This document shows, piece by piece, positions 1 to 64,000 of a stretch of DNA of 64,000 bases. Each line of letters starts with the position of its first letter. The first letter of the stretch is position 1. Origin of the DNA: an uncultured virus (IMG/VR IMGVR_UViG_3300021087_000674) (lineage: Duplodnaviria; Heunggongvirae; Uroviricota; Caudoviricetes); the IMG/VR virus record IMGVR_UViG_3300021087_000674. The stretch is one strand, 5' to 3'. The position numbers and the translations under genes are program-made. The notes beneath the pieces were generated by a model. It did no database searches and was not told where the DNA came from. It saw only the letters and a program-made list of their open reading frames with translations.

Positions 1-2
1 TA

Positions 3-1694
3 GATCATAATAGCATAGACTATGAAATGCAGGATTTTAGTGATATGATTTTTCAATTACTTGGAGCAAAATATATAGATGGCACACCTTTAACTGATGA
101 AGAATTAGAAGAATTTGAAAAAACAGATGAACTTCTTGATTGGATTGCAGAGGATTATGCAACACAAGGAGAATCAACTAAAGAAGATAGCAAAGAAAAC
201 TTTTCTTTTGGTCAAATAGCAAAAGCAAAAGCATATGCTAAATTATATATAGATAATTATACAACCGCTGTAAAAAATATTGAAAAAATTGCAAAAGGAT
301 TATCAAGCCATCCAGATGTTGCTGATGCATTAAGAAAAGCAAACGAAGATCATGAACCTAGTTTATCAGATTTTACAGATCCAGGTACACCAGAAGAATT
401 AGCTAAAGAAATTTATTTTAGAGGGTCTGGCGCAAAAGAATATCAAGCACAATATAAAACTTGGCAAGAATTTATGAATTCAGAAGACTTTGAAATGGAA
501 GTTGATAGATTAAGAAGTAAATTTGAAGATAACAAAGATACAAAAAAACAATCTAGCGATGAATTAATGAAACAATTTCTTGCTAAAGGTGGTAAAGTAC
601 AAAAAGTACCTACAGGACAAACTGCATATAAAGGAAAACAATTAAAACCAGCCTTTAAAAAAGATCCAGCTTTAAAAAACACACCTATTACAAGTCCAGG
701 AAGTGATGAATCAGTCAAAGAAGATAAGGAAGCAACTTTATTAGGCAAAGCTGAGGCTTCTTTAATGCACGGATTAGAAATGGCCCAGGCTGTACTTAAA
801 AAAGATTATGGCCTTGCAGAAGTTCAGGCTAAAGTTATTTCAGAAAATTGGCCACCTTTAATTGATTCAATTAAAAATGTATATAAAACTAATTCTGCAA
901 AAGAAGATTTAGCTTCAATACTAAATTTTGATAAAAAAGATTATGGATTGAAAGAAAGAATGCCAGCATCAATTATTAAGCACAAACAAAAACTTGCTAT
1001 GATGACTGATAAAGAATTAGCAGACAGATTTAAAGATAAAGATGAAAAAACATTACGTCAAATAGCTTGGAGACATGGTTACGGTAACATGAGTTCACAT
1101 TATTGGGATAGAGTACAAGCTGGCAGACAAGAAACAACTGAAAATGTAGATCATCTAGGATTAGCAATTAAAAAAGAAGACAGTAAAGTAAAAGAAGAAG
1201 CACCATTTGGAACAGGAATGGATTTAGTTAGAATGGCTGTAATGAGAAAATTTTTATCAGCAGAAGAATATGTAAATTTTGCAAAAGAATTAAAGGCGGC
1301 AGGTGAAGAAGTTGCTAATGGTCCACATTATGCAGATTGGCCAGATGGGGAAGGCTTTGGATCTTCTGATGGAAACTTTGCAATTAGAGATTTAATGAGT
1401 ACAGCAGGATACGAATTTGATGACAAAGATACAAGTGGTAGATTTGTTGTAACTAAAATGCCAGAGAAGTTAGCAAAAATGGGTATAACAAATGTAAGAA
1501 TGAAACAACCAGAGTTACCTGTTGCAAAAGAACAAGATAGTGATGGTATGCAACCAGCTGACTTAAAAAGATTAGGTCAATCAGTACCTAAAATATATGT
1601 TCATAAAAATGGTAAAACAATTTTAATTCCTAAAAGTAAACATAACGAGTTTCTTGCTAAAGGGTGGAAAAAATCGGCATTGAGGGCAGAATAA
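3..1694 (+). CDS. 5'-truncated acidic modular protein, putative internal head (poly)protein containing a SutA-like FLAKGGKVQKVP motif
   Basis: Frame is open from the window edge (GAT CAT AAT...) upstream of the ATG at 27; Glu/Lys-rich segments are separated by ESxxE/xKE motifs. Confidence 0.5.
   Translation, partial: DHNSIDYEMQDFSDMIFQLLGAKYIDGTPLTDEELEEFEKTDELLDWIAEDYATQGESTKEDSKENFSFGQIAKAKAYAKLYIDNYTTAVKNIEKIAKGLSSHPDVADALRKANEDHEPSLSDFTDPGTPEELAKEIYFRGSGAKEYQAQYKTWQEFMNSEDFEMEVDRLRSKFEDNKDTKKQSSDELMKQFLAKGGKVQKVPTGQTAYKGKQLKPAFKKDPALKNTPITSPGSDESVKEDKEATLLGKAEASLMHGLEMAQAVLKKDYGLAEVQAKVISENWPPLIDSIKNVYKTNSAKEDLASILNFDKKDYGLKERMPASIIKHKQKLAMMTDKELADRFKDKDEKTLRQIAWRHGYGNMSSHYWDRVQAGRQETTENVDHLGLAIKKEDSKVKEEAPFGTGMDLVRMAVMRKFLSAEEYVNFAKELKAAGEEVANGPHYADWPDGEGFGSSDGNFAIRDLMSTAGYEFDDKDTSGRFVVTKMPEKLAKMGITNVRMKQPELPVAKEQDSDGMQPADLKRLGQSVPKIYVHKNGKTILIPKSKHNEFLAKGWKKSALRAE
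576..611 (+). repeat. 36-nt exact direct repeat, copy 1 (copy 2 at 3569-3604; 14-nt partial at 1650-1663)
   Basis: TTTCTTGCTAAAGGTGGTAAAGTACAAAAAGTACCT read at both positions. Confidence 0.95.
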
Positions 1695-2923
1695 TGCGAT
1701 CTAAAGATTTTTTCACTTCCGAAAAAAAATTATCTAAAAAACAAAAATCTAAAAAAGAAAAATATGTCAAAGGCATGAAGAAAGGTGCCAAAGATTTTAA
1801 AGCAAGATATGGCAAAGATTACAAATCTGTAATGTATGCTACTGCTACAAAAATGGCTAAAGAAAACACAAATGAAAGTCCTATAGAACAAGATAGAGAT
1901 AATCCTATTGCAAAACCATATGTAGATACACCAGAATGGAAAACTCTACACGATATGGATGATAAAATTATTGACGCATACATCAAACATAAAGATTTTA
2001 AAGAAGAATCAATTACTGAACATAGAGGATTAATTGGAACTTATGCTAGAGAAATAGCAACAGGCAAACTTGTAAGAATAGTTGACTATACAGATGATGA
2101 TGAAGGCATTTACACAATATCTTACGGAGATGGTAAAGGTGAAACAGATGTAGTAGCGAAAGATTTAAAATTTATGGACCCTACTTCTTATTGGTCCGAT
2201 GAAGATGAAAATTTAGATGAAGGTGTAAAAGAATATCTAAGAAAGTTAGCGGCGGCTGGAATAATTATAGGAACTTTAGCAGGTGTTGGTTCAATTAATG
2301 ACGCATTAAACAATAGTGTTGATGTTGTAAAAGCAATGAACTCTGCATTAGAAATTGCACAAGAACAAGGTGACAATGAAAAAGCTAACGAAATTACACA
2401 AGATATAAAAGGCGTAAAATTAAGACTTGATATAGGTAAAGATTTAAATCAAGTAAAATATATGCAAAAGAAATATGAAAAATTTATGCCTGACAATGAA
2501 AGTGCTATGAAAGAAGGGGCAAGTTTAAATCCATATTTTTTAACTAAAAAAGAATTTAATGGTAAAATGCAAGACGTTTGGGAATTCCCAGATGGCATGG
2601 GGGATGAAGATGAAAGTCCTTATCTTTCAAACTTTTCAATGAGAGATGTATTAAATTCATTAGGTATGGACCCTAATTTTGAAGACGCAGGACCAATGCC
2701 TATAGATAAATTTATTAATATTACAACTCAATGGTTAAAGAAACACATTAATAAACCATCTGGAGAAGTACCTACAACAGTTGATAAATCCGGAGGTGGA
2801 GCAACTATGATAGGTGGAGGTAAACCAGAAGGTTGGGATAATAGATTAATAATGCAATTCAATCAATTTGCACGTCATATTAAACAAAAGTTTCCTAAAG
2901 TTACTCATATAGGAATTGCATAA
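1694..2923 (+). CDS. hypothetical modular protein, putative internal head protein
   Basis: ATG overlaps the upstream TAA (TAATG); starts MRSKDFFTSE; contains ENTNE, ESITE, ENLDE and ESAMKE linkers. Confidence 0.5.
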   Translation: MRSKDFFTSEKKLSKKQKSKKEKYVKGMKKGAKDFKARYGKDYKSVMYATATKMAKENTNESPIEQDRDNPIAKPYVDTPEWKTLHDMDDKIIDAYIKHKDFKEESITEHRGLIGTYAREIATGKLVRIVDYTDDDEGIYTISYGDGKGETDVVAKDLKFMDPTSYWSDEDENLDEGVKEYLRKLAAAGIIIGTLAGVGSINDALNNSVDVVKAMNSALEIAQEQGDNEKANEITQDIKGVKLRLDIGKDLNQVKYMQKKYEKFMPDNESAMKEGASLNPYFLTKKEFNGKMQDVWEFPDGMGDEDESPYLSNFSMRDVLNSLGMDPNFEDAGPMPIDKFINITTQWLKKHINKPSGEVPTTVDKSGGGATMIGGGKPEGWDNRLIMQFNQFARHIKQKFPKVTHIGIA

Positions 2924-2928
2924 TTCTA

Positions 2929-3495
2929 ATGAAATATTTTGAAGTGGAAGGCGGAGAGCCTGTAAACAAACCAATAGTTTATGTAGATATGGATGGAGTT
3001 TTAGCAGACTTCTTTGGTGGCGTAGAAAAATTATATGGTGTTGACCACTGGAAACAATTAGTATCTGATAAAACTAAAGATCTTAAACAAGAAGTTATTA
3101 CTAGAATAACAGGCACAGATTTCTTTAAAACATTACCCAAATTTCCTACTGCTGATAATTTAATTGCAACTGTTAAAGAATTTACAGGTGGTACATTTTC
3201 TATATTATCATCTCCATTAAGAGGTGACCATGAAAATTCAGCAAATGGCAAAAGATTTTGGTTACAACAAAACATAGAAGCACCTAATCAAATTATTATT
3301 ACTGGGCGTAAAGAATCATATGCAAAAGATAAGAGAACAGGAGTATCTAACATACTAATTGACGATAGACCAAAAAATTTAAACCGTTGGAAAGCATCGG
3401 GTGGTTATGGAATTTTATATCAGGCCAACAGGAATCCTATAAGTAAAGTAAAAACGGAGTTAGAACAATATGGGCAAGTTCATAGCAATCAATAG
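2929..3495 (+). CDS. HAD-superfamily 5'(3')-deoxyribonucleotidase (NT5C-like)
   Basis: YVDMDGVLADF motif I and ILIDDRPKN motif IV. Confidence 0.85.
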   Translation: MKYFEVEGGEPVNKPIVYVDMDGVLADFFGGVEKLYGVDHWKQLVSDKTKDLKQEVITRITGTDFFKTLPKFPTADNLIATVKEFTGGTFSILSSPLRGDHENSANGKRFWLQQNIEAPNQIIITGRKESYAKDKRTGVSNILIDDRPKNLNRWKASGGYGILYQANRNPISKVKTELEQYGQVHSNQ

Positions 3496-3646
3496 AGCTT
3501 ACACGGCAGGCAAAACAGAAAAAAGCCCTCTAGAAAAACAAAAAGAACTTGATGATATGATGCAAAAGTTTCTTGCTAAAGGTGGTAAAGTACAAAAAGT
3601 ACCTTATAAAGTAACTAAAGATCAATTAAAAAGAGGTAAATTATAA
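3470..3646 (+). CDS. 58-aa protein with SutA-like RNAP-binding motif (not in the ORF track)
   Basis: GGAG at 3456-3459, ATG at 3470, MGKF...ELDDMMQKFLAKGGKVQKVPY...; stop overlaps the next ATG. Confidence 0.7.
   Translation: MGKFIAINRAYTAGKTEKSPLEKQKELDDMMQKFLAKGGKVQKVPYKVTKDQLKRGKL
3569..3604 (+). repeat. 36-nt exact direct repeat, copy 2
   Basis: Identical to 576-611. Confidence 0.95.
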
Positions 3647-3840
3647 TGAAAATATTTGAAATTGTAGCATTACCTTTAGAAGAGTCCAGAACAAAAATTG
3701 TTCAACTTATAAAGAATAAAAAAGAAGAAGGTGTAGGCATTATTACTAAACAAAACACTACAGTAGACGTTAAGCCCGGAGATGAGTTCAAAAACGTTAA
3801 AAAACTAGGGTTAGGCACTACAATTAAAAAGCTAAGATAA
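3646..3840 (+). CDS. hypothetical protein (MKIFEI N-terminus)
   Basis: ORF translationally coupled to the upstream ORF. Confidence 0.7.
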   Translation: MKIFEIVALPLEESRTKIVQLIKNKKEEGVGIITKQNTTVDVKPGDEFKNVKKLGLGTTIKKLR

Positions 3841-3848
3841 TATAAATA
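3841..3848 (+). promoter_or_regulatory. T4-type late promoter-like box TATAAATA
   Basis: Exact TATAAATA in an intergenic gap before AAGGAG and ATG 3876. Confidence 0.7.
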
Positions 3849-3875
3849 CAAGTATAACACTAAAGGAGATACACT

Positions 3876-4121
3876 ATGGCGGCGGCAGACGAAACAGCAT
3901 TAGCAGAAGTAGTAGCAGAAAATAACTGGGCTAAAACTATAGCCGAGAGTGCAGTAACAATAAACACAAATTTCAAGAACGGTAGTATTACCAAAAATGA
4001 AATGATTGATCAAGTAAATGCTCTTATCGATGGAGATAAAGAGTATGCACATAGACAATTGGGTGTTAGAACTGCAGAAAAACTACATCAAGCTATTAAA
4101 AATATAATCAAAGTAGACTAG
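3876..4121 (+). CDS. hypothetical protein
   Basis: ORF with strong SD AAGGAG. Confidence 0.8.
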   Translation: MAAADETALAEVVAENNWAKTIAESAVTINTNFKNGSITKNEMIDQVNALIDGDKEYAHRQLGVRTAEKLHQAIKNIIKVD

Positions 4122-4154
4122 TAGTTTCCCCTAGGTTTGTCTTTTCATTTCACA

Positions 4155-4337
4155 ATGAAAATCAACGAAATCAAAAGAAGACACGATCATCATTATGGCA
4201 TTGACCCTAATGCCAAGACCGTAACCTACCCACACGTAATTGGTAACGTTTACGGTAAAAAGAATTTAAAAGTTCCTCACGCCAAATATAGCATTAGTAA
4301 AAGAGCCAAACAAATCTATAAAGGCAAAAATAAATAG
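4155..4337 (+). CDS. hypothetical basic protein (MKINEI N-terminus)
   Basis: ATG 4155 gives the same N-terminal motif as neighbouring genes. Confidence 0.6.
   Translation: MKINEIKRRHDHHYGIDPNAKTVTYPHVIGNVYGKKNLKVPHAKYSISKRAKQIYKGKNK
4329..4336 (+). promoter_or_regulatory. late promoter-like AATAAATA, 5 nt before ATG 4342
   Basis: AATAAATA-GTATT-ATG with no SD. Confidence 0.6.
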
Positions 4338-4341
4338 TATT

Positions 4342-4614
4342 ATGAAGATTAGAGAAATTTTAAGTACTAGAGTAGATGAATATGCAACAGCAGGAGCAAC
4401 TTCGGCTGGTAATATTGCCACTGTAAATAATCCACAAGTTGCAATTGGTCCTGATAGATTTAAAAAATCTTATACAGGGTATCCAGGAAAATCAGGATGG
4501 AAAGCTCCTAAAGTACCTAAAGTAGCTACACCTAAACACCCAGACGGTAGAGTTAAAGGTGCTCACGAAATGCCTAACGTAAGTTTATTTGGGCAACCTA
4601 TTAAGCGAGTATAA
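4342..4614 (+). CDS. hypothetical protein (MKIREI N-terminus)
   Basis: ORF; MKIREILSTRVDE followed by ATAGATSAGNIA. Confidence 0.75.
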   Translation: MKIREILSTRVDEYATAGATSAGNIATVNNPQVAIGPDRFKKSYTGYPGKSGWKAPKVPKVATPKHPDGRVKGAHEMPNVSLFGQPIKRV

Positions 4615-4617
4615 ATA
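4610..4617 (+). promoter_or_regulatory. late promoter-like TATAAATA, 5 nt before ATG 4623
   Basis: TATAAATA-CTACT-ATG. Confidence 0.7.
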
Positions 4618-4622
4618 CTACT

Positions 4623-5123
4623 ATGAAGCACAAAGAAATCAAAGTTAAAGAAAATTTTGCAGACGAGGCTAAAAAAGCTGAATCAGACCACGAAGTGCAA
4701 ATGGCACGAGGTGACTTATATAAAGCCGCAAAATGTTCAATTAAACTTCATGACATGATGAAAAGTGTTAGTGAATCTGAAGGACTAGAAGGCTGGATAC
4801 AAGCAAAAATTACTAAAGCTTCTGATTACTTAACTACTGTATTCAATCATTTTGATTATAAACAAAAATTTAATAATTCAATAAATTACGTAGGTGAAAC
4901 TAATCCTATGCCTGACATGAACAAATATGGAATATACACTACAAAGAGTAAAGATGGTGATTTCCAAGTATGGCAAGGTGACAAACATTTAGGAACGTTT
5001 AAAACAATAGAAGATGTTGATGCGTTTTTACATGACTATTTAGACAAAAAAGAAACAACTAATACACAAGATTCTTACAAAGAAAACCTTTCTACAAAAC
5101 TTCAAAATAAGTTATCAAAATAA
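4623..5123 (+). CDS. hypothetical phage protein (MKHKEI N-terminus)
   Basis: ORF with DHEVQMA...LEGWIQAKITKASDYL helical motif. Confidence 0.75.
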   Translation: MKHKEIKVKENFADEAKKAESDHEVQMARGDLYKAAKCSIKLHDMMKSVSESEGLEGWIQAKITKASDYLTTVFNHFDYKQKFNNSINYVGETNPMPDMNKYGIYTTKSKDGDFQVWQGDKHLGTFKTIEDVDAFLHDYLDKKETTNTQDSYKENLSTKLQNKLSK

Positions 5124-5197
5124 AGTCAATTCCTTAAAATACAATAAATACTCTTATAATTACGTTATGGAAAAATTATTAGAGGAGGTACCGAGGT

Positions 5198-5905
5198 ATG
5201 GCTTATTTAATAGCAAACTTACCGCCAGTAGACTGTTATGTTAGAATGGAATATCTCTATGACCTGCAAAAAGATGATAACGGAAAATTATTAGGTCAAG
5301 GCAAATATACTCCTGCTGTCTGGATTACTGTAAAAAGTATATCAGGTAAAGCATTATATATAGAATCCTTACTTCCAGAATATGGTGCATTATACGATAA
5401 ACTACCTCTGAGTGCATACGTTTGGAAAACAGATGCAGATACAAGTAAATTTTTACCTTTAGATCATTTAGAAATTTGGGATTCCTTTTCATATTACATT
5501 ACAGTTTTAGAAAAAGCAACATTATCAGGACTTCGTTGTTCATTTTTAGGTAAAGACAAAAAAATGCATAGTGGTGAATATATGTTTACAATAGATAGTT
5601 GCCATAGCAATGACAATGAACTCAATACAACTTTTTCTGAAATACCTGATGAACACAAATCATTTAATGTAATGAAATTAGATAACGGACAATATGCCGC
5701 ACAACCAAATAACAGAATGAGATGGTTTGAGCAAAGTTTAGTATCTCATGAAACTAAAACAGCAGATTTTAAAGTTAGCACAAGAGAATATAGTGTAGAA
5801 GATAATCCAAAATGGTCAGCCAATTACGGTGATGGCGATACTTGGGCATATGAATTAAAAGAACATAAACCAAAAATTGATAAACCAAATCCTAATAAAG
5901 AATAA
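5198..5905 (+). CDS. conserved hypothetical phage protein
   Basis: 235-aa ORF with SD GAGG and AATAAATA at 5143-5150. Confidence 0.75.
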   Translation: MAYLIANLPPVDCYVRMEYLYDLQKDDNGKLLGQGKYTPAVWITVKSISGKALYIESLLPEYGALYDKLPLSAYVWKTDADTSKFLPLDHLEIWDSFSYYITVLEKATLSGLRCSFLGKDKKMHSGEYMFTIDSCHSNDNELNTTFSEIPDEHKSFNVMKLDNGQYAAQPNNRMRWFEQSLVSHETKTADFKVSTREYSVEDNPKWSANYGDGDTWAYELKEHKPKIDKPNPNKE

Positions 5906-5918
5906 TCAAAAAGAATTC

Positions 5919-5947
5919 TTGACATTTCAATCAATATTAAGTAAAAT
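5919..5947 (+). promoter_or_regulatory. sigma70-type promoter
   Basis: TTGACA-17 nt-TAAAAT. Confidence 0.8.
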
Positions 5948-5971
5948 AAGTTAAATTTATTGAGGAGAATT

Positions 5972-6232
5972 ATGAGTGAAAGAACTTATGGGCCAGAAGA
6001 ACAAGCCAAATTAAAAAGAATAGTAGATGAAGGAGCAAACGTTCTTTCAGAAGTAGAAGATTTAAGTGCAGGATTAAAAGACACCGTAAAAGCAGTAGCC
6101 GAAGAATTAGAAATCAAACCTGCCCTAATTAATAAGGCAATCAAAATTGCACATAAAGGTGATTGGAGCAAGTATTCAGAAGCTTTTGATAGCTTAGAAA
6201 ACTTGATAGTAGCAGTTGGCCAAGATAAGTGA
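5972..6232 (+). CDS. dsDNA-binding protein, T4 DsbA / GapR-like
   Basis: SD GAGGAG; helical pattern LKRIVDEG...LKDTVKAVAEELEIKPALINKAIKIAHK. Confidence 0.6.
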   Translation: MSERTYGPEEQAKLKRIVDEGANVLSEVEDLSAGLKDTVKAVAEELEIKPALINKAIKIAHKGDWSKYSEAFDSLENLIVAVGQDK

Positions 6233-6455
6233 AATAACTTGGTGGCTTAAATGGTTAGCCACTGCGACTTTAATTATAGGAACTGCGATTAATTCAGTAG
6301 GATATTATCCAGAAGGTCCAATCATTTTAGCTATAGGAGGAGTCCTTTGGCTAACAGTAAGTATAATTTGGAAAGAGCCTGCATTAATAGTGACTAATAT
6401 TACTTTGGTAACAGTTGCCGCGGTAGGATTAATTTGGACAAACTGGTTAACATAA
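6216..6455 (+). CDS. small membrane protein
   Basis: Three hydrophobic segments. Confidence 0.7.
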   Translation: MAKISEITWWLKWLATATLIIGTAINSVGYYPEGPIILAIGGVLWLTVSIIWKEPALIVTNITLVTVAAVGLIWTNWLT

Positions 6456-6456
6456 T

Positions 6457-6753
6457 ATGATATATTACATTGACATAGACGGGACCATTTGTTATACTGA
6501 AGGTAGCGACTATGATAATAGTAAACCTGATTTAGAAAAAATAAAACAGGTTAATGAATTATATGATAAAGGTCATGAAATTCATTATTGGACTTCCAGA
6601 GGAGGAATGTCTGGAAAAGACTGGTATCTATATACAGTAGCTCAACTTAATGAATGGGGTTGTAAATTTACATCAATTAACGTAGGTAAACCAGTTTATG
6701 ATAAATGGGTTGACGATAAAGCAATAAACGAAAAGGATTTTTTTAATGGCTGA
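6457..6753 (+). CDS. small HAD-family phosphatase
   Basis: YIDIDGTIC, WTSRG and GKP...WVDDKA motifs. Confidence 0.8.
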   Translation: MIYYIDIDGTICYTEGSDYDNSKPDLEKIKQVNELYDKGHEIHYWTSRGGMSGKDWYLYTVAQLNEWGCKFTSINVGKPVYDKWVDDKAINEKDFFNG

Positions 6754-7240
6754 TGATTTTGATAATGTAACGGAAGAATGTTTTACTTCCACTAAAAGTT
6801 TTTGGAACTTTCCTTGTGCTCATAGACAATATAGACACGATGGAAACTGTCATGTAATTCATGGATACAGCAGAAGTTTTCATTTTGTATTTGGAGTTAA
6901 ATCATTTACAAAAGAAGGCTTTGCAGTTGACTATGGTGACTTAAAAGAATTAAAAGCACATCTAGAACATATGTACGACCATACTCTAGTACTTGATGAA
7001 GAAGATCCATATATGGATAAATTTAGAGAATTAGAAAAAGCAGGAGTATGTAGAATTAGAACTCATCCAATGGGACCTGGTATGGAAGGTACTGCACATT
7101 ATCTTTGTGATTGGACAGACAAACATTTACGAGAAAAAACAAGAGGACGTGCTTGGGTTATTAGTGTAGAAGCAAGAGAAAATGATAAAAATAGTTCAAT
7201 CTATACAAATCCAAATGCTGGATTTAAAGGATGGTTATAA
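6746..7240 (+). CDS. queD: 6-carboxytetrahydropterin synthase (PTPS/QueD)
   Basis: CAHRQ...CHVIHGYS, DYGDLK...YDHT and REND motifs. Confidence 0.85.
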   Translation: MADDFDNVTEECFTSTKSFWNFPCAHRQYRHDGNCHVIHGYSRSFHFVFGVKSFTKEGFAVDYGDLKELKAHLEHMYDHTLVLDEEDPYMDKFRELEKAGVCRIRTHPMGPGMEGTAHYLCDWTDKHLREKTRGRAWVISVEARENDKNSSIYTNPNAGFKGWL

Positions 7241-7241
7241 T

Positions 7242-7790
7242 ATGAATAAAATGTGGCCTTCACCTGGTGAACATAGAATGGTAGCGAATGGTAGTAAATG
7301 TATGGTACCTAACACAACATTTAAAACTAGAGTAGCAGGTGAGTGGTTAGATGTAACTACAGATGATTTATTTAAAAATAAAAAAGTAGTTATATTTTCG
7401 TTACCTGGTGCATTTACCCCAACGTGTTCAAGCACACATTTACCAGGATATGAATTAAAAGCTGACAGTATTAAAGAAACAGGCATAGATGAAGTTTATT
7501 GTATATCAGTAAATGATGCATTTGTAATGAATGCTTGGGCAAAAGATTTAAAAGCAGAAAAAATTAAAATGATTCCCGACGGTAATGGAAAATTTACTGA
7601 AGGAATGGGTATGTTAATCAACAAAGAACATTTAGGTTTTGGCAAACGAAGCTGGAGATACTCTGCAGTTGTAGACAACGGTGAAGTAATCAAAATGTTT
7701 ATAGAATCAGGCAAGAATGATATAGGTGAAGACCAAGATCCATTTGAAACATCTGATGTTGATACCATGCTTAAATATCTTAGAACATAA
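7242..7790 (+). CDS. peroxiredoxin (Prx5/Redoxin family)
   Basis: LPGAFTPTCSSTHLPGY, SVNDAFVM and RSWRY motifs. Confidence 0.92.
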   Translation: MNKMWPSPGEHRMVANGSKCMVPNTTFKTRVAGEWLDVTTDDLFKNKKVVIFSLPGAFTPTCSSTHLPGYELKADSIKETGIDEVYCISVNDAFVMNAWAKDLKAEKIKMIPDGNGKFTEGMGMLINKEHLGFGKRSWRYSAVVDNGEVIKMFIESGKNDIGEDQDPFETSDVDTMLKYLRT

Positions 7791-7801
7791 CGGAGAAATA
7801 A

Positions 7802-8998
7802 ATGAAAATACTTTGTATACTATACGACGATCCAAAAGACGGAATGCCTACAAGCTATCCAGTTAAGGATCTACCAAAATTAGAAAAATATCCAGACGGA
7901 ATGACACTACCAACACCTAAGGGCAGAGATTTTACGCCAGGTGATTTATTAGGTTGTGTATCTGGAGAGTTAGGATTAAGAAAATTTTTAGAAGATGCTG
8001 GACACACATTAGTTGTTACATCTGACAAAGACGGAGAAGGTTGTCAAGCAGACAAAGAATTAGTTGATGCTGACGTTGTTATATCTCAACCGTTTTGGCC
8101 ATATTACTTGACAAGAGAAAAAATGGAAAGTGCACCAAATTTAAAAATGGCAATTACAGCAGGTATTGGATCTGACCACGTTGATTTACAAGCGGCAATG
8201 GATCGTAAAGTTGATGTAGTTGAAGTAACTTATTGTAATTCAAGATCAGTTGCTGAACATATTGTAATGATGATTTTATCTTTAGTTAGAGATTATCATA
8301 ATCAACACAGAATAGTAAACGAAGGTGGTTGGCATATTGCTGACGCTGTAAAACGTTCTTATGATGTTGAAGGAATGCACGTAGGTACTATTGCGGCAGG
8401 ACGTATCGGTTATGATATGTTAAGAAAGATGGCACCATTCGATGTACATCTACATTATTTTGACAAACATAGATTATCTGAAGATAAGGAAAAAGAATTA
8501 AATTTAACTTATCATGATTCAGTTGAATCTTTAATAGCAGTTTGTGATGTGATTAATATAAGTTGTCCATTACACCCTGAAACAGAACATATGTTTAATG
8601 ATGATTTAATCAGTAAATGTAAACCTGGTGCGTATATTATTAATACTGCAAGAGGAAAAATATGTGATAAAGATGCTATTGCAAGAGCATTAGAATCTGG
8701 ACAGTTAAGTGGCTATGCTGGAGACGTTTGGTTTCCACAACCAGCACCTAATGACCATGTTTGGAGAAGTATGCCAAACCATGGTATGACACCACATACA
8801 TCAGGAACATCACTATCAGCACAAACAAGATATGCTGACGGTGTTAGAGAAATACTAGAATGTTTCTTTGATGGCACACCAATAAGAGATCCGTACTTAA
8901 TTGTACAAAATGGAGAACTTGCTGGAATGGGTGCTCACTCATATACGAAAGGAACAGCAACTGGTGGATCAGAAGAAGCGGCTAAATTTAAAAAATAA
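7802..8998 (+). CDS. fdh: NAD-dependent formate dehydrogenase
   Basis: LLGCVSGELGLRKFLE, ISQPFWP, AGIGSDHVDL, AAGRIG, NTARG, GDVWFPQP and MTPHTSG signatures. Confidence 0.95.
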   Translation: MKILCILYDDPKDGMPTSYPVKDLPKLEKYPDGMTLPTPKGRDFTPGDLLGCVSGELGLRKFLEDAGHTLVVTSDKDGEGCQADKELVDADVVISQPFWPYYLTREKMESAPNLKMAITAGIGSDHVDLQAAMDRKVDVVEVTYCNSRSVAEHIVMMILSLVRDYHNQHRIVNEGGWHIADAVKRSYDVEGMHVGTIAAGRIGYDMLRKMAPFDVHLHYFDKHRLSEDKEKELNLTYHDSVESLIAVCDVINISCPLHPETEHMFNDDLISKCKPGAYIINTARGKICDKDAIARALESGQLSGYAGDVWFPQPAPNDHVWRSMPNHGMTPHTSGTSLSAQTRYADGVREILECFFDGTPIRDPYLIVQNGELAGMGAHSYTKGTATGGSEEAAKFKK

Positions 8999-9010
8999 AA
9001 CAGAATCTAA

Positions 9011-10063
9011 ATGAGACTAGATCAAACTATACATTTAGATTATGCAGATGTTTTGTTAAAACCAAAACGTTCTACGTTATCATCTAGAAAAGAAGTAGAT
9101 ATGACTAGAACATTTACATTTAAAAACTCTAAAGAATCATATACTTGTTGTCCAATTGTAGCATCTAATATGGATGGTGTTGGTACATTTAGTATGGCTA
9201 AAGTATTACAGGAATATAAAATGATGACTGTAATAACAAAAACAACAACACCTGAGCAATGGAAAGAAGCAGTTGGACAAGGAATAAAATTAAAATACAT
9301 TTCTGTATGTACAGGCACAGGAAAACTTTGGGATAAAGACGCAGAAGATTATACTACATTACAAACAGTATTAAAAAGTTTTCCAGATGTTAAGTTTATT
9401 ACAATTGACGTTGCAAATGGTTATCATGAAAATTATGTAGACTTTGTTAAAAAAGTAAGAGATGAATTTCCAGATAAAACTATAATTGCAGGTAACGTTG
9501 TTACTGGTGAAATGGTTGAACAATTAATTATTAGTGGTGCTGACATAGTAAAAATTGGCATTGGTCCTGGTTCAGTATGTACAACAAGAACAATGGCTGG
9601 TGTTGGTGTACCTCAATTTTCAGCAGTAGTAGAATGTGCAGATGCGGCGAATGGCGTTGGTGGACATATTATGGCTGACGGTGGATGTAATGAACCTGGT
9701 GATGTATCAAAAGCATTAGGTGGTGGAGCACATTTTGTTATGCTAGGTGGTATGTTAGCAGGATTCAACGAATCAGAAGTTGAAGTAAAAGACGGAAAAA
9801 GAGAATTTTATGGAATGAGTTCAGACCGGGCAAGAGAAATACACGGCAAAAGAAAAGATGGATATAGAGGCAACGAAGGAAAAAGAATTTTTTTACCAGA
9901 TAGAGGACCTGTTAAAGAAGCAATAGAAGATATGTTAGGTGGTGTAAGATCCTCTTGTACATATATTGGGGCAAGAAGATTAAAAGATATACCCAAATGT
10001 GCAAGTTTTGTTTGTGTAAACCACCAACTCAATAAGGTATATGAAAGTTATGAGAATCATTAA
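9011..10063 (+). CDS. guaC: GMP reductase
   Basis: DVLLKPKRSTLSSR, SNMDGVG, DVANGY, GIGPGSVCTTR, FYGMSS and GGVRSSCTYIGA; no CBS domains. Confidence 0.92.
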   Translation: MRLDQTIHLDYADVLLKPKRSTLSSRKEVDMTRTFTFKNSKESYTCCPIVASNMDGVGTFSMAKVLQEYKMMTVITKTTTPEQWKEAVGQGIKLKYISVCTGTGKLWDKDAEDYTTLQTVLKSFPDVKFITIDVANGYHENYVDFVKKVRDEFPDKTIIAGNVVTGEMVEQLIISGADIVKIGIGPGSVCTTRTMAGVGVPQFSAVVECADAANGVGGHIMADGGCNEPGDVSKALGGGAHFVMLGGMLAGFNESEVEVKDGKREFYGMSSDRAREIHGKRKDGYRGNEGKRIFLPDRGPVKEAIEDMLGGVRSSCTYIGARRLKDIPKCASFVCVNHQLNKVYESYENH

Positions 10064-10066
10064 ATA
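10061..10066 (+). promoter_or_regulatory. late promoter-like TAAATA, 5 nt before the rplL ATG
   Basis: TAAATA-TTAAT-ATG with no SD. Confidence 0.55.
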
Positions 10067-10071
10067 TTAAT

Positions 10072-10443
10072 ATGGCAGAAATAGATACATTAGTAGAACA
10101 ATTAGGAAAATTAACAGTAGTTGAAGCAGGAGAACTTTCTAAAAAATTAGAAAAGGCTTGGGGACTAAACTTGGATAGCTTAATGAATCAACCAGCTCAA
10201 ACACAATCCCAAGTTGTTGAAGAATCAGCAACAGCCACAGTTATCTTAACAGGATTTAAAACTGGCAGTAAAATACCTGTACTTAAAAAAGTACGTGAAT
10301 ATTTCGAAGGGATGGGTTTATTAGAAGCCAAGAATTTTATTGAAGATTTACCAAAACCAGTTAAAGAAAACATCGAAAAAGAAGAAGCAGAAAAAGTTCA
10401 AAAGGCATTAATAGAAGCAGGCGGAACCGTAGAATTAAAATGA
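10072..10443 (+). CDS. rplL: ribosomal protein L7/L12 (bL12), full length
   Basis: N-domain LTVVEAGELSKKLEKAWG; C-domain KIPVLKKVRE..GMGLLEAK..EAEKVQKALIEAGGTVELK. Confidence 0.92.
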   Translation: MAEIDTLVEQLGKLTVVEAGELSKKLEKAWGLNLDSLMNQPAQTQSQVVEESATATVILTGFKTGSKIPVLKKVREYFEGMGLLEAKNFIEDLPKPVKENIEKEEAEKVQKALIEAGGTVELK

Positions 10444-10547
10444 GCAAACTAACTGAGGCAGAAGAACTAGAAAAAACAATAAATGGCACATGGACTATAA
10501 AAGAAATTATTGAAGCGATGAACCGCATTCTTGACAAAGATCAATAA
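10440..10547 (+). CDS. 35-aa hypothetical protein (not in the ORF track)
   Basis: ATGA overlap with the rplL stop; MSKLTEAEELEKTINGTWTIKEIIEAMNRILDKDQ. Confidence 0.5.
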   Translation: MSKLTEAEELEKTINGTWTIKEIIEAMNRILDKDQ

Positions 10548-10559
10548 ACTTGTTATAGT
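10531..10559 (+). promoter_or_regulatory. sigma70-type promoter for DNA polymerase
   Basis: TTGACA-17 nt-TATAGT with TG extended -10. Confidence 0.8.
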
Positions 10560-10573
10560 ATAGAAAAGGTTTA

Positions 10574-10619
10574 GTTGGCCAAAAACAACGATTGGTAATA
10601 TGTCAGCCAAAAATGACAT
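10574..10619 (+). promoter_or_regulatory. tandem RNA hairpins with identical GCCAAAAA loops, candidate translational operator of DNA polymerase
   Basis: GTTG-GCCAAAAA-CAAC (10574-10589) and ATGTCA-GCCAAAAA-TGACAT (10600-10619), 1 nt before SD AGGAG. Confidence 0.7.
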
Positions 10620-57349: not shown

Positions 57350-58828
57350 TTACACTTTTAAAACGCACTGGACTAGTTTTTCTGATGTCTCTTGATTGGT
57401 TTCTAAAGCAATTCCTACCATATTACCAGCCGCCCAATTCCATTTACCAATTCCTACCCCATTTTCGAAAGAATAAACTTTATTTCCTTTTTGGACTGCG
57501 CCTAAAACTCTAACAGGTACTTTACCAACAAAAGCAACAGGTTGTCCTGTGCCTTCACTATTCATTAAGTATGCAGGATTTTCGGAAATAACCCCTATTG
57601 GGCTCGACCCTTCAGTCGTTCCGTCTGCTGTTACTTCTTTTTCTCCACCTACTCTTACAATTGTACCTATTTCATACTCTTGATCAGTTTCATATACCTC
57701 AGCCAAGTCAGCATAACTGGCATTAGTTGCTGTACCTACAAAATATCTTGCAGTAATATCTGCATTGGCATCTCTAAGAGCTGTTGTATTTGCTACTTGA
57801 GTTATTGCACCCGGATATGTTGAAGGACCAAAGTAAACTCCTGTTGCCGAATCGGCATTTCCTTTGAAACTTGTTGCGTGAACTTCATACCATTTGTCAG
57901 CGGCATCCCCTAGGTTTCTATTTCCAGTTCCTGGATTAATACCTGTAGTCGTTACTTCTGCAATTGTAGTAACTTGTCCACTAACATTTACTTTTAAATC
58001 TATTTTTGATCCTACTTCATTTGAAATTGTAGCTTCATTACCATTTAAAATTGATACTCTAAGATCATTACTATCACCGACTGTAAAACCTGCATCTACA
58101 AAAGATGCAATTCCACTAAAAGTTGTTGTTCCTGCACCTGTAGTTAGATAATCGCTGGCAAGTTTTCCACCTAATCTTAAAGAGTTAGATGCACTACCCC
58201 AGAAATAATGATCTGTTGATGTAGTACCGTTTGTAGCGTCTTTTGTGTCTACAAGAGTAATTCCTTTTCTAATTTTATCAAAACCTGTAATTAAATTATT
58301 TGGATCTGAAGTACCTAGTGTAAATTCTGTTTGACTTATAGCAATTATTGTTTTGTCATTAACAACACCTTCTATAATTAAATGATTTGCGTTTAATGTA
58401 TCTTTAACAGTTCTACTTTTGAACTGAGTAACAACTGATCCTACACCTTGTGGACCTACTAAAACAAATCCTGCTCCGTTCCAAGCATATAATTGATCAT
58501 TTCCAGTATCCCACCAAAAATCTCCAGTAGTTAAACCTGTAGGAGCTGAGGCATCTACTTCTGCTCCACCTGTTGTTCTAAATTTTGTACCATCATAAAA
58601 CTTTAATTTGCTATTTGCACTATCAAACCATAGTTGTCCACTAACAGCTTTTGAAGGTGAAGTTGCTCCTGAGAAGTTTTCCAACATATGTAAAAAATTC
58701 TCATTTTGAATTTCACCGTATCCAGCGTAGTTTTTACCTATAAATCTGATGTCTGTAGTCTGATCTATAGTACCATCTGCTACAGTTGTAAGTAAAGTTC
58801 CGTCGTATTTGTTAACTAAATATGCCAT
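57350..58828 (-). CDS. tail fibre protein with C-terminal intramolecular chaperone (Peptidase G2-like)
   Basis: Shared N-domain (GKNYAGYGEIQNENF...GQLWFD); ADLAE...IGVISENPAYLMN...GKVPVRV. Confidence 0.75.
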   Translation of the reverse strand: MAYLVNKYDGTLLTTVADGTIDQTTDIRFIGKNYAGYGEIQNENFLHMLENFSGATSPSKAVSGQLWFDSANSKLKFYDGTKFRTTGGAEVDASAPTGLTTGDFWWDTGNDQLYAWNGAGFVLVGPQGVGSVVTQFKSRTVKDTLNANHLIIEGVVNDKTIIAISQTEFTLGTSDPNNLITGFDKIRKGITLVDTKDATNGTTSTDHYFWGSASNSLRLGGKLASDYLTTGAGTTTFSGIASFVDAGFTVGDSNDLRVSILNGNEATISNEVGSKIDLKVNVSGQVTTIAEVTTTGINPGTGNRNLGDAADKWYEVHATSFKGNADSATGVYFGPSTYPGAITQVANTTALRDANADITARYFVGTATNASYADLAEVYETDQEYEIGTIVRVGGEKEVTADGTTEGSSPIGVISENPAYLMNSEGTGQPVAFVGKVPVRVLGAVQKGNKVYSFENGVGIGKWNWAAGNMVGIALETNQETSEKLVQCVLKV

Positions 58829-58847: not shown

Positions 58848-61127
58848 TTACGTAGAGTGTGTAAGTGTTCTATCGTATTCCCATGCTCCTGTACCATTAC
58901 CACTAGAATCATTAACTATAAACTGTAATAAACTCCTTGTTGGTGTAAATCCTATGTTTCCTGAAGCAGTTGTAAATGTAATATCCTCTACAACTTGTTT
59001 ATTTGCATTACCCACAACAGGTGTTCTTTGAATTGTACCACTGTTAGCGTTATAATTACCACCTGCAAAGTTTAGTCCTGTACCACTACCATCTAAATCT
59101 ATAGTTAGTGAAACGAAATTAGGATATTCAGCAGTAAATTCTGCCGCCTGTACTGTATAATTACCATCAATATTTGCAACAGGACCCGCTCCAAACGTTG
59201 TTCCTGAAACTACAACTGCCTGACCTGCCTCATAATAGTGAGAGACAGTCATAGTAAGTTTAGTAGTTTGTCCTAAACTAACATCATCAATACCTGTTTG
59301 AACAGCATTAATAGTTCTTTGTGCGGCTGTAACTGTTTGATCAACTGGTGAATAGTCTATTAATTTTACACCATCTACATTAATACCCGATACTGCTCCA
59401 CCTGATCCATAATCAACTGTACGAACTCTTGCTAATACTCCATGAGATTTAGATCCTATTGGAACTGCGTTAGCCGCCGTGACATTTGTGTTTAATGGTG
59501 GTTCACCGTTTGGTTGAGCATAAGTGGACCAAGCATTAGGTGTACTCAATGCAGAATATCCTTTTGCAGGATATAAATCTTCTAATACTTTACATATCCA
59601 ATCCCATAAAGTAGTTCCTGACCCTTGTCCTGAAATATCTAATTCTATTCCAACAGATACACTTCCGTCTACATATGCTTTAGTTACTGCATCGGATGGA
59701 TCTGATGGTGTGCCAAGTCCTGTAATTCTTTGGCTATCCATAATTGTAATAGGTTGTGGACTTTTAAGTTGAATTTTATTTGATGCATTACTACTATCTG
59801 CTTCAATAGTTAAACCATCTATTATTATTTCATCAACTTGAAGTGCAGTTAACGTTCCTAAATTTGTTAAAGATGAATTTGCTACTTGAGATCCTAATGT
59901 ATTTTCTGATAATACAATATTTGTATTAACTTTAAATGTTTTTCCTACTGCTAAATCTATATTTTCTGTTGACGTCCAACTATCTGTGCCATCTGACCAA
60001 ATAAATTGTTTATCACCTCCAGTGGATTTAAGAATTATACCTCCTTCATCCGCCGCAGTATCATCTCCAAAAACTCCTGCATCATCTATTGCTAATTCAA
60101 TATTTTTATCTTTAACTTGTAAATTAGTAACAGAAATATTAGTTTGTGTTCCGCTTACTGTAAGATTTCCTGAAATGTTTACGTCACCACCTACGTCTAG
60201 TGTTTTAGTTGGTGTTGCTTGAAATATTCCTACATAGCTATTAGTAGCATCAACTTTAATTGCCGATGTTGCTGTAGGATTACGTACTTTTAAATTAAAA
60301 TCTTGATTAGTTAATACGTTTTCTATAGTAAATGCGTTTGAATCAAATTTTAATTGAGTATTATTGTTTAAACCAACAATAACTCCTGCATTATTTTGAA
60401 CAGTTATTGAACCTGTAGTTGTATCGTTAGCATCTGCATACAAATATTGATCACCAGTTCTTGGTGTACCTGCCGCATTAGTTAAATTTTGTGCTTTAGA
60501 AACTACGCCTCTATATATAAAAGAATCTTGTACAGCATTAAAGCCTTTGTATATTGCACCACTAGGATTAGTAGTTGCATTAATTAGTTCTGTTATTTGT
60601 TGAGTTGGTACTGGAGTAAAGTCTACATTAGCCCAAGCACCTACAAGTGAACCTTGAATAGAAAACTTAATAACAGTTCTTGTTTGATTTTGTGTATCTA
60701 AAATTGATACTACTTCCCAACCTGATGTACCTTGTGCAAGTGAATAATCTGGACCAACTAATTTAAGAACTGTTCCATCAAAGAAATACATTTGTTGCTT
60801 AGAACTATCAATCCATAGATCACCTGCAACCATATTAGGTTGTGTAGTTGCAACAGTTGTTCCGCCACCGGATACAAAAGCTGTTCCATTATAAATTTTT
60901 AATTTATTTTCTGAAGAGTCATACCAAAGTTGACCTTTAATAGGATTTGCAGGAGCAGTTGTATTAGCAAAATTTTCTAATACTTTGATAAAATTTTCAT
61001 TTAATACTTCACCAAAGCCAGTATAATTTCTACCAATTAAAGTTAAGTCGCTAGATGTAGTATCGATTTGACCATCGATTAAATCTACTAATAAACTTCC
61101 ATCTGTTCTATTAAGTTTATACCCCAT
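58848..61127 (-). CDS. tail fibre / baseplate-attached protein
   Basis: Shared N-domain (GRNYTGFGEVLNENF...GQLWYD), beta-rich body, DAVTKAYVD motif. Confidence 0.75.
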   Translation of the reverse strand: MGYKLNRTDGSLLVDLIDGQIDTTSSDLTLIGRNYTGFGEVLNENFIKVLENFANTTAPANPIKGQLWYDSSENKLKIYNGTAFVSGGGTTVATTQPNMVAGDLWIDSSKQQMYFFDGTVLKLVGPDYSLAQGTSGWEVVSILDTQNQTRTVIKFSIQGSLVGAWANVDFTPVPTQQITELINATTNPSGAIYKGFNAVQDSFIYRGVVSKAQNLTNAAGTPRTGDQYLYADANDTTTGSITVQNNAGVIVGLNNNTQLKFDSNAFTIENVLTNQDFNLKVRNPTATSAIKVDATNSYVGIFQATPTKTLDVGGDVNISGNLTVSGTQTNISVTNLQVKDKNIELAIDDAGVFGDDTAADEGGIILKSTGGDKQFIWSDGTDSWTSTENIDLAVGKTFKVNTNIVLSENTLGSQVANSSLTNLGTLTALQVDEIIIDGLTIEADSSNASNKIQLKSPQPITIMDSQRITGLGTPSDPSDAVTKAYVDGSVSVGIELDISGQGSGTTLWDWICKVLEDLYPAKGYSALSTPNAWSTYAQPNGEPPLNTNVTAANAVPIGSKSHGVLARVRTVDYGSGGAVSGINVDGVKLIDYSPVDQTVTAAQRTINAVQTGIDDVSLGQTTKLTMTVSHYYEAGQAVVVSGTTFGAGPVANIDGNYTVQAAEFTAEYPNFVSLTIDLDGSGTGLNFAGGNYNANSGTIQRTPVVGNANKQVVEDITFTTASGNIGFTPTRSLLQFIVNDSSGNGTGAWEYDRTLTHST

Positions 61128-63138: not shown

Positions 63139-63141
63139 TTA

Positions 63142-63753
63142 TTACCCCTCGTTAAATCCTGTCAAACTTTGTACTCTAACAGTATAATCTATTTGAATTA
63201 ATCTGTTTAAACTTTTTTGGACAGGATGGAATACTACATGAGTAAGTAGATTTCCAGTACCACTAGGGGAGTAACTTACTAAACCTAATTCGTCAAATAC
63301 GTATAATCCGTCTACATTACTAGAATTATCTACTGCATCTTGTCCGCTTGGCTCACCATAATCTAACAAACAAGTAACTAACACATCTGTATAATTTGTT
63401 CCATTAACGTGTCTTGTTTCAAGTTTATTTCTTAATGGATCTAAATTTGATACTGATCTATCATCAACTATTTTAGTAAATGTTTGATTATATAGACTAG
63501 CATTAGTTCCTGTTGAATTAGGCGTTAGATATGTAATAATACCAGTTGGATCGATGGACGTTCCACCGTTACCAAATACCATAGAATTTATGAATCCTTG
63601 ACCAGCATTAGCAAGACTATCTGCTAGTGCTTGACTCATATTTTCATAGTGTATGGCGTTTCTTTTATTAATGAACACATGGCCCGAATCGGGATCATGT
63701 ATCTTAATATGCCCTTGAAGTAAGACGCCGCTGTTTTCTTTAATATTGTTCAT
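63142..63753 (-). CDS. putative baseplate/structural protein
   Basis: GHIKIHD...NAIH, FDELGL and HVVFHPVQKSLNR; SD GGAG and AATAAATA upstream. Confidence 0.6.
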   Translation of the reverse strand: MNNIKENSGVLLQGHIKIHDPDSGHVFINKRNAIHYENMSQALADSLANAGQGFINSMVFGNGGTSIDPTGIITYLTPNSTGTNASLYNQTFTKIVDDRSVSNLDPLRNKLETRHVNGTNYTDVLVTCLLDYGEPSGQDAVDNSSNVDGLYVFDELGLVSYSPSGTGNLLTHVVFHPVQKSLNRLIQIDYTVRVQSLTGFNEG

Positions 63754-63778
63754 TTACGCTCCAGTTCGTTATGTGTAT

Positions 63779-64000
63779 TTATTGCGGCAAAGCCAGTTCC
63801 TTTTGTCGCAAGAATCTAGCAATATCATTGTCTGATTGACTTAATGGTTTAATGCCAGATTGCCATTTTTTACCTAGTTTTCTTATAGTTATTATTTTTG
63901 TGCCAGCTATAGGTGTTGTTGTAAGTATTACAACTGGGCTTATTCCGTCTACAGTAAATTCTGCAGGAGAAGTAACGTCAGCTTCGGGACTATCTTGTCC
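63779..64000 (-). CDS. C-terminal fragment of a probable structural protein, truncated by the window edge
   Basis: Open minus frame GQDSPEADVTSPAEFTVDG...IARFLRQKELALPQ*. Confidence 0.6.
   Translation of the reverse strand, partial: GQDSPEADVTSPAEFTVDGISPVVILTTTPIAGTKIITIRKLGKKWQSGIKPLSQSDNDIARFLRQKELALPQ

Follow-up and report, generated by a model that had tools for sequence, protein, structure and literature searches.

Complete loss of GCWGC and flank-dependent loss of further restriction-type words in a marine jumbo phage with a predicted DpdA3-type 7-deazaguanine module

What has removed the word GCWGC from a phage genome, and what decides which other restriction-type words the same genome keeps? 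The question is raised by a stretch of 64,000 bases (31.4% G+C) from an uncultured virus, IMG/VR record IMGVR_UViG_3300021087_000674, hereafter called the window. A first-pass annotation had noticed an apparent lack of GCAGC and GCTGC in it and had ascribed this to strong selection by one host restriction (or other sequence-specific) activity that the phage's own base modification does not block. The window belongs to an uncultured marine jumbo phage, T4-like and cosmopolitan, of ~350 kb and 31% G+C, and classical restriction-site avoidance is very probably the best reading of what we observe. Site avoidance has long been known, and the core finding is an unusually clean example of it, not a discovery. 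What goes beyond known avoidance is an effect on the proteins, the coexistence of the purge with a predicted DpdA3 module for 7-deazaguanine in DNA, and a single flank rule that holds over four words.

Absence of GCWGC and silent recoding

GCWGC is given as the recognition site of TseI in PMC3643589 and of ApeKI in PMC8557920, as far as the available excerpts of both papers go. Neither GCAGC nor GCTGC occurs in the window, which does hold 38 copies of GCGGC, 17 of GCCGC, 147 of GATC, 123 of GANTC, 34 of GGCC and 49 of CCWGG, the last four having been reported as present before. Markov models of order 1, 2 and 3 predict 35.5, 39.4 and 46.2 copies of GCWGC. For a codon-aware null, synonymous codons were shuffled 300 times across 71 open reading frames (ORFs; 60,105 nt), keeping the proteins and the overall codon usage. 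Under this null 43.0 ± 2.8 copies are expected and the lowest of the 300 shuffles has 35, so that the absence first seen by eye is confirmed as total. GCSGC, in turn, is found 51 times in the ORFs against 8.9 expected, with 47 of the 51 copies in the GCS-GCN frame, and this excess shows that allowed neighbour words replace the missing ones.

The replacement can be followed codon by codon. All 47 Ala-Ala pairs in the window begin with GCG (32) or GCC (15), in line with what the annotation had read from a part of them, and these two codons account for just 99 of the 1031 Ala codons found elsewhere. Where the preceding codon ends in GC, AGC or TGC is used in none of seven cases; CAG is used by none of the 10 Gln and CTG by none of the 19 Leu that stand in a G_C context. 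The Ala-Ala examples cited in the annotation, listed here as read from the sequence, were all verified at their coordinates on both strands:

3876-3887, plus strand: ATGGCGGCGGCA, ATG GCG GCG GCA, Ala codons forced to GCG before GCN
14341-14349, plus strand: GCGGCGGCA, GCG GCG GCA
29731-29742, plus strand: CAAGCGGCGGCT, CAA GCG GCG GCT
37297-37301, minus strand: GCSGC in a minus-strand gene (Ala-Ala without GCWGC)
53642-53646, minus strand: GCSGC in a minus-strand gene
60052-60056, minus strand: GCSGC in a minus-strand gene

Contigs ~93% identical to the window prolong its sequence on both sides. The window and the non-overlapping parts of two of them, G002 and G003 (L080-L082 and L086), were combined into a non-redundant set of 127 kb, referred to as lineage A. 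In this set GCWGC is again absent, against 93.8 ± 4.1 expected (lowest of 200 shuffles, 84), GCSGC is found 110 times against 20.6 expected, and 105 of 105 Ala-Ala pairs have GCG or GCC as first codon. GCWGC is also zero in G002 (104,729 bases), G003 (90,105 bases) and G005 (71,680 bases), each taken as a whole and each ~93% identical to the window.

The purge reaches the proteins as well. Lineage A encodes 105 Ala-Ala pairs where within-gene residue shuffles predict 166.4, a ratio of 0.63. The corresponding ratios are 0.61-0.79 in group B, whose DNA polymerases are 76-78% identical, 0.89 in a separate lineage (G015) and 1.00-1.13 in three lineages that keep GCWGC, and Gly-Gly and Ser-Ser pairs are unaffected in the same comparison. 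About 40% of the Ala-Ala pairs have been lost from the proteins through the GCWGC purge. As Ala-Ala is short while Gly-Gly and Ser-Ser are normal, a constraint on DNA has removed part of a dipeptide from the proteome, and a defence pressure acting on DNA would thus have measurably altered protein sequences.

A neutral cause, be it mutational decay (methylated cytosine in GCWGC being deaminated, for example), a bias in codons or composition, or an artefact of sequencing or assembly, is extremely improbable. The genome is AT-rich and GC-rich words are rare in it anyway, but the null that keeps proteins and codon usage still calls for the 43 sites given above, and GCSGC, although higher in G+C, is almost six times as frequent as expected. 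In sister lineages with a similar base composition GCWGC stands at expectation (73/69, 106/102 and 72/84, observed/expected under the codon-aware null). The absence is moreover repeated in many independent assemblies. In addition, a 10-kb stretch was found near-whole (at least 93% of sampled words) in 20 runs belonging to 14 studies of metagenomes, either marine or unspecified, with four of these runs being possible sources of the window itself.

Under classical restriction-site avoidance, host restriction endonucleases would have exerted long and strong selection on the lineage, and the phage would have stripped every copy of a target word that its DNA cannot otherwise protect. GCWGC would have been removed in all contexts as a TseI/ApeKI-type site; avoiding a BbvI-type enzyme, the site of which is GCAGC, on both strands would have the same outcome. 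The silent route consists of GCG or GCC before Ala, AGT or TGT after a codon ending in GC, CAA in place of CAG, and no CTG.

Further purged words and purge states of related phages

A second word is missing altogether. RCATGY, the absence of which had gone unnoticed in the annotation, is found 0 times in the window against 42.0 ± 4.8 under the codon-aware null and 0 times in lineage A against 60.4. Under the same null, the window is depleted of AAGCTT (1 against 16.9), GCGC (6 against 21.9), CATG (102 against 186), CTNAG (42 against 80), AGCT (102 against 173) and TCGA (33 against 64), none of which the annotation had noted, and GATC, GGCC, GANTC and CCNGG lie near expectation. NspI recognizes RCATGY; HindIII, HhaI and DdeI are further enzymes to be named for the words considered here. 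With at least five words purged (GCWGC, RCATGY, GCGC, AAGCTT and CTNAG), and with sister lineages purging AGCT or all CATG instead, the idea of a single restriction activity is not borne out. Its more general part, selection against a sequence-specific nuclease, is supported in that it predicts the pattern seen here: the total absence, the synonymous compensation, the occurrence in independent assemblies and the variation between lineages.

To place the purge among related phages, the family B DNA polymerase (PolB) was used as marker for relatives and tree:

10631-13297, plus strand: family B DNA polymerase (Pfam DNA_pol_B plus exonuclease domain)

It has 384 relatives in viral contigs, and its closest cultured relatives are jumbo phages (Phosso, Atu_ph07, 121Q and others, 42-48% identity). 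The tree comprises 72 rows, i.e., the window and 71 of 79 loci with a PolB frame of at least 700 amino acids, eight loci with a truncated PolB being left out. Four words were scored, each as purged if observed/expected was at most 0.1 with an expectation of at least 4, giving six states:

GCWGC + RCATGY: 7 rows (lineage A plus L007)
GCWGC + RCATGY + AGCT: 18 rows (lineages of ~76-78% polymerase identity)
all CATG: 3 rows
AGCT only: 2 rows
GCWGC only: 2 rows
none of the four scored words: 40 rows

In a quick maximum-likelihood tree the GCWGC/RCATGY purge defines a single well-supported group, 26 rows in size, and was acquired separately in L055. The six states can be explained by 6 changes along the tree, where shuffling gives a mean of 28.5; purge states are discrete and heritable among related phages. 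Under the codon-aware null, GCWGC amounts to 0/29, 0/24 and 0/19 in the group B contigs G012, G013 and G014, and to 0/44 in G015. If host enzymes are the selecting agents, the purge states of the clade would record restriction enzymes of hosts that are not yet culturable. Apart from the scored words, G015 (L121-L122), in which GCWGC was purged independently, has a strong deficit of AATT (47/192 and 15/84 in two flank classes).

Purging of this kind is found in cultured marine phages as well. Every word that the window has purged is also missing or depleted in at least one of four SAR11 phages, HTVC010P, HTVC011P, HTVC019P and HTVC008M, but no single pelagiphage has the window's whole set. Against a shuffle null, HTVC010P has 0/14 RCATGY and 0/63 CTNAG, HTVC019P has 13/53 GCWGC and 9/91 CTNAG, and the three SAR11 podophages have no AAGCTT and 0 or 1 GCGC. 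Relative to Markov expectation, GCWGC amounts to 3/42 in HTVC011P, 13/48 in HTVC019P, 57/43 in HTVC010P and 65/34 in the first 50 kb of HTVC008M. For the three copies in HTVC011P the synonymous-shuffle null expects only 4 where the Markov model expects 42, so that the purge is already built into the codon or amino-acid usage of that phage. Unlike the window, which keeps these words, these SAR11 phages also purge GATC, GANTC, GGCC and TCGA; they are without a deazaguanine module, and their genomes measure 35-147 kb compared with ~350 kb for the window phage.

Could the phage instead be avoiding its own enzymes? Phage-encoded endonucleases specific for GCWGC and other words would degrade host DNA while the phage's own genome is kept free of sites, and the footprint in the sequence would be identical. 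One PDDEXK-family endonuclease gene is present in the extension (L080:14210-14749), and the sequence covers ~36% of the genome. We nevertheless regard this explanation as very improbable. No restriction-enzyme-like or methyltransferase gene was found in the 127 kb, and five or more words would require several such nucleases. Equally complete purges are found in cultured podophages of 35-42 kb whose annotations (45-64 features) name no restriction enzyme, and sister lineages with near-identical gene order purge different words. A DNA methyltransferase in particular was found neither with Pfam among the 71 window and 49 extension ORFs nor among 48 (PHROGs) and 43 (NCBIfam) window ORFs, and the sequence covered thus gives no sign that the phage escapes restriction through methylation.

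The G-purine flank rule and the predicted 7-deazaguanine module

Each site of GCWGC and of four depleted words was assigned to one of two classes, depending on the presence of a G-purine step (GA or GG, on either strand) within it or across its borders. Counts are given as observed/expected:

CATG: lineage A, no step 0/59, at least one step 170/239; G012, 0/40 and 132/130
CTNAG: lineage A, no step 0/30, at least one step 88/145; G012, 0/12 and 51/70
GCGC: lineage A, no step 0/25, at least one step 16/27; G012, 0/17 and 13/16
AAGCTT: lineage A, no step 0/20, at least one step 7/15; G012, 0/7 and 0/5
GCWGC: lineage A, no step 0/75, at least one step 0/20; G012, 0/20 and 0/8

For CATG, CTNAG, GCGC and AAGCTT, step-free sites sum to 0/~134 in lineage A, whereas GCWGC, unlike these four conditional words, is gone in every flank context. 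The survivors follow the rule site by site. All 16 GCGC sites left in lineage A are GGCGC or GCGCC. Surviving AAGCTT has G at -1 or C at +1 in 3/3 cases in the window and in 12/12, 10/10 and 4/4 cases in relatives, and within the coding set this holds for 7/7, compared with a null fraction of 0.39. Surviving RCTNAGY is always CTGAG or CTCAG (2/2 in the window; 5/5, 3/3 and 4/4 in relatives), the sparing of CTSAG having been predicted beforehand. Control words and unpurged lineages show no flank split. We found no description of such a rule in the literature searched, the search not being exhaustive. The surviving AAGCTT and RCTNAGY sites in the window, read from the sequence and not assigned to a strand, are:

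4816-4821: AAGCTT followed by C (AAGCTTC)
6180-6185: AAGCTT preceded by G (GAAGCTT)
29287-29292: AAGCTT followed by C
45730-45736: RCTNAGY as ACTGAGC, internal GA step, one of two in the window
58423-58429: RCTNAGY as ACTGAGT, internal GA step, the second in the window

As part of the same process of site avoidance, RCATGY would have been removed, and GCGC, AAGCTT and CTNAG would have been removed where no G-purine step touches the site. Most other guanine-containing sites are probably shielded by a DpdA3/DpdL-type 7-deazaguanine module, and GATC, GANTC, GGCC and CCWGG would stand at normal frequency because the module probably protects them. The window encodes what is predicted to be the whole phiST-type, QueC-less module, consisting of DpdA3, DpdL, FolE, QueD and QueE, together with three embedded genes:

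14633-16096, plus strand: predicted DpdA3-type DNA guanine transglycosylase (tblastn E = 7e-74, 33.6% identity to PA5oct QCG76197.1; DSGGFQ motif visible)
16284-18153, plus strand: two oxidoreductase genes inside the module, GFO_IDH_MocA-type and ADH_N-type (Pfam)
18724-19098, plus strand: DpdL, a predicted CDG decarboxylase and QueD paralogue (57% identity, E = 2e-48, to ACP17 ASD50405)
19101-20177, plus strand: glycosyltransferase-like gene within the module (44% identity to an annotated family 4 glycosyltransferase of PAC2 and Phosso)
23515-24192, plus strand: FolE, GTP cyclohydrolase I (Pfam GTP_cyclohydroI, E = 6e-45)
24200-25063, plus strand: QueE-like radical SAM enzyme (PHROG 2076, E = 4e-50; NCBIfam QueE matches below cut-offs)
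6746-7240, plus strand: QueD / PTPS (Pfam PTPS, E = 5e-19)

The base modification that the annotation had assumed thereby obtains a predicted gene basis, and the presence of the module supports the idea that the purged words are the targets that modification leaves unprotected. PA5oct QCG76197.1 is listed as DpdA3 in Supplementary DS1 of PMC10516641, and ASD50405 was matched by gene order to YP_009609725, which is DpdL in the same list. The module (14633-25063) adjoins the DNA polymerase gene on its downstream side. As far as the available part of PMC10516641 goes, phiST, ACP17 and PA5oct share this arrangement, all five gene families being found next to a DNA polymerase gene. The window differs from the phiST-type module in the embedded glycosyltransferase-like and oxidoreductase genes. 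The former is also 37% identical to ASD50404, the ACP17 protein whose gene stands between those of DpdA and DpdL. Given the sugar enzymes embedded in it, the module may make a derivative more elaborate than plain 7-deazaguanine.

Pfam TGT (PF01702) gave no match in G001-G006 or in the DpdA3 ORF, which makes it a false negative for DpdA3. QueC (PF06508) had no match in G001-G005 (37.7-104.7 kb) and none in the window by Pfam or NCBIfam, with about one third of the genome covered. The ORF at 41415-42236 matches the PP-loop N-terminal domain of TilS weakly (E = 2.8e-4); QueC is a PP-loop enzyme too, and the ORF may encode a diverged QueC-like enzyme or a different protein. Among six sister contigs tested, DpdA3, DpdL, FolE and QueE are all present in five, and G015, which ends just past DpdL, has DpdA3 and DpdL only. 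The two oxidoreductases are restricted to lineages purging GCWGC and RCATGY. The glycosyltransferase is likewise found in these lineages, with a distant homologue (39% identical) in G010. FolE was considered as a marker of flank-conditional purging and rejected, being present in 7 of 10 records, including unpurged lineages and a lineage without CATG. Genes for purine and guanine salvage lie around the module (2929-3495, 9011-10063 and 21224-22107), encoding a 5' deoxyribonucleotidase, a GMP reductase/IMPDH-family enzyme, a xanthine/guanine-type phosphoribosyltransferase and a HIT protein.

Given such a module, the flank rule could also originate in the phage's own DNA. A DpdA3-type system would then insert a possibly sugar-bearing 7-deazaguanine only at G before a purine, which would block ordinary enzymes of 4- to 6-base specificity (cutting CATG, CTNAG, GCGC or AAGCTT) at sites that contain or adjoin such a step and leave only unshielded sites to be purged. 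GCWGC, having no internal G-purine step, would be purged everywhere if its enzyme is unhindered by a neighbouring modified base. This is a tentative possibility with evidence on both sides. One dinucleotide rule covers four words with unlike flank rules at the level of single bases: a Y at -1 or an R at +1 rescues CATG and CTNAG, a G at -1 or a C at +1 rescues GCGC and AAGCTT. The complete lack of step-free sites in lineage A and, for the first three words tabulated, in G012 agrees with it, as do the sparing of CTSAG with its internal GA, the flanks of the seven coding AAGCTT survivors, the flat controls and unpurged lineages, and the presence of the module. GATC, GANTC, GGCC and TCGA, all of which contain GA or GG and are purged in SAR11 phages, are kept here, with TCGA halved. 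Conditional purging was seen in the two lineages with the glycosyltransferase, and two lineages without it purge unconditionally, G009 for CATG (0/24, 1/88; no step and step) and G016 for AAGCTT (0/12, 0/6). Context-specific insertion of deazaguanine that blocks restriction is on record for DpdA1-type systems, in GA and GGC context in CAjan (PMC7544227) and in GA context in iggy (PMC10484667), according to the excerpts available of both papers.

The likeness to CAjan and iggy is that a G-purine context sets which sites are protected there (PMC7544227, PMC10484667, same excerpts) and that the survivors here carry a GA or GG step. The difference is that those systems are DpdA1, whereas the window phage is of DpdA3 type, any G-purine step rescues, and the link between modification and flank would be indirect. 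A rescue limited to GA and GGC as in CAjan was rejected, as CATGGD sites whose other strand is unprotected survive (36/63.7 and 43/37.6). GG without a following C therefore also rescues.

Other observations speak against a shield of this kind. The same flank dependence is found in phages without a homologue of the module (tblastn E <= 1e-3; positive controls matched): comparing no step with step, HTVC010P has CATG at 0/13 and 54/53, and HTVC008M has AAGCTT at 3/21 and 8/11 and GCGC at 12/26 and 46/33. Since HTVC008M purges GATC, GANTC and TCGA, no G-purine shield operates in it. G009, the sister lineage in which CATG is purged unconditionally, carries the module. In the window phage and its relatives, a G-purine step fails to rescue GGCWGC (0/20.9) and, in group B, GAGCT (0/26), the G that rescues GCGC and AAGCTT is not part of the recognition site, and TCGA is halved in the 127-kb set (77/143) despite its internal GA step. 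Lastly, the DpdA3 phages measured so far replace all guanines irrespective of context (available part of PMC10516641).

That the flank rule reflects specificities of host enzymes has, on our analysis, about an even chance, and we consider it more probable than a rule set by the modification context, a part of the probability going to neither. That SAR11 phages without the module show parts of the rule weighs on this balance. Should the modification account hold, for which we see a smaller chance, the set of purged words would be a readout of the phage's own DNA chemistry, i.e., of a bulky 7-deazaguanine derivative that a DpdA3-type system, extended by the glycosyltransferase and the two oxidoreductases, would place only at G before a purine, and that would stop restriction enzymes even when it is adjacent to their site. 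Only words that never carry or touch such a step (GCWGC, RCATGY, WGCGCW, HAAGCTTD and RCTWAGY) would then have needed erasing, sequence data would suffice to deduce the modification motif of an uncultured phage, and context-blindness would not be common to all DpdA3 enzymes. Either way, the flank rule would mean that a DpdA3 system acts in a context-specific manner or that ocean bacteria have new restriction specificities that depend on the flanks. Two features are left unexplained by both readings of the rule, namely the halved TCGA and a stronger depletion in the 127-kb set of ACATGR/YCATGT (60/107) than of GCATGR/YCATGC (43/51), neither of which is RCATGY.

For the whole pattern, restriction-site avoidance has several points to face. 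The 127 kb analyzed make up ~36% of a genome put at 350 kb. No endonuclease or methyltransferase with specificity for GCWGC has been linked to a candidate host. The four conditional words, different as they are, obey one dinucleotide rule, and we know of no set of enzyme specificities that explains this, apart from an NspI-type activity on RCATGY. Full guanine substitution in DpdA3 phages and the resistance of phiST to many guanine-containing enzymes, both given in the available part of PMC10516641, sit poorly with continued cutting by a TseI-type enzyme; the window phage has nonetheless purged several guanine-containing words.

In favour of avoidance stands its precedent. Complete or near-complete loss of orthodox type II sites is described for roughly a tenth of prokaryotic viruses, the majority being dsDNA phages that are non-temperate, in the available part of the survey by Rusinov et al. 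2018 (PMC6286503). The window phage resembles the cases treated there in that a type II word is fully eliminated by synonymous recoding, several words are affected at once and the pattern is lineage-specific. It differs from them, within the same part of the survey, in that the purge extends to the proteins (Ala-Ala at 0.63 of expectation) and that four of five words are purged only without a G-purine step. As purging and a predicted 7-deazaguanine module are combined as two anti-restriction strategies in one phage, the words that are still purged would predict which types of enzyme defeat deazaguanine DNA.

Host, genome context and neighbouring genes

The annotation had also expected GCWGC to help in identifying the host, which was not achieved. 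The word is purged in some but not all SAR11 phages from one strain, and its methylation has been reported in metagenome-assembled genomes of freshwater and marine Chloroflexi (PMC6329791, PMC8919816, in the excerpts available), which makes it a poor host marker by itself. A SAR11 host is compatible with the data without being specific, as the purge sets of the four same-strain phages differ. A phage of ~350 kb is a doubtful fit for a SAR11 cell on grounds of cell size. The Prochlorococcus myophage P-SSM2 has some of the purged words in common with the window. A further candidate for a host signal was a phage-encoded ribosomal protein:

10072-10443: L7/L12 homologue, too diverged to indicate a donor

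A search with it in genome contigs returned 22 loci of 34-61% identity from unrelated phyla and gave no host signal.

Besides PolB and L7/L12, large-phage genes in the window include tail fibres, ClpP, GMP reductase and many radical SAM genes (Pfam, PHROGs). The extension contigs encode T4-type capsid, portal and baseplate genes, ThyX, ClpB, DnaJ and peptide deformylase. T4-like replication genes are present, and no integrase is among the Pfam hits in the 127 kb, about one third of the genome. The genome size of ~350 kb follows from a relative of 104,729 bases that was rated 30% complete by CheckV. Megablast of window positions 1-20000 against the phage collection gave no match, and no tRNA genes were found in the window.

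Seven radical SAM genes are clustered at 35041-52149, mostly on the minus strand, two with SPASM domains and one with an HMPTM-type zinc ribbon; the cluster also holds an Asp/Asn beta-hydroxylase-like gene and many ORFs without any family. At 33449-34570 lies an N-terminal domain of the major tropism determinant (Mtd) of diversity-generating retroelements; a reverse transcriptase is not among the window's Pfam hits. In G003, a SET-domain protein of 106 amino acids is encoded at L086:7338-7655, beside a PPIase and ThyX. Finally, ~11 kb of G002 (L081 ~8.5 kb to L082 ~0.6 kb) have no ORF with both ends inside L081, and this gap suggests a very long open reading frame spanning the L081/L082 boundary.

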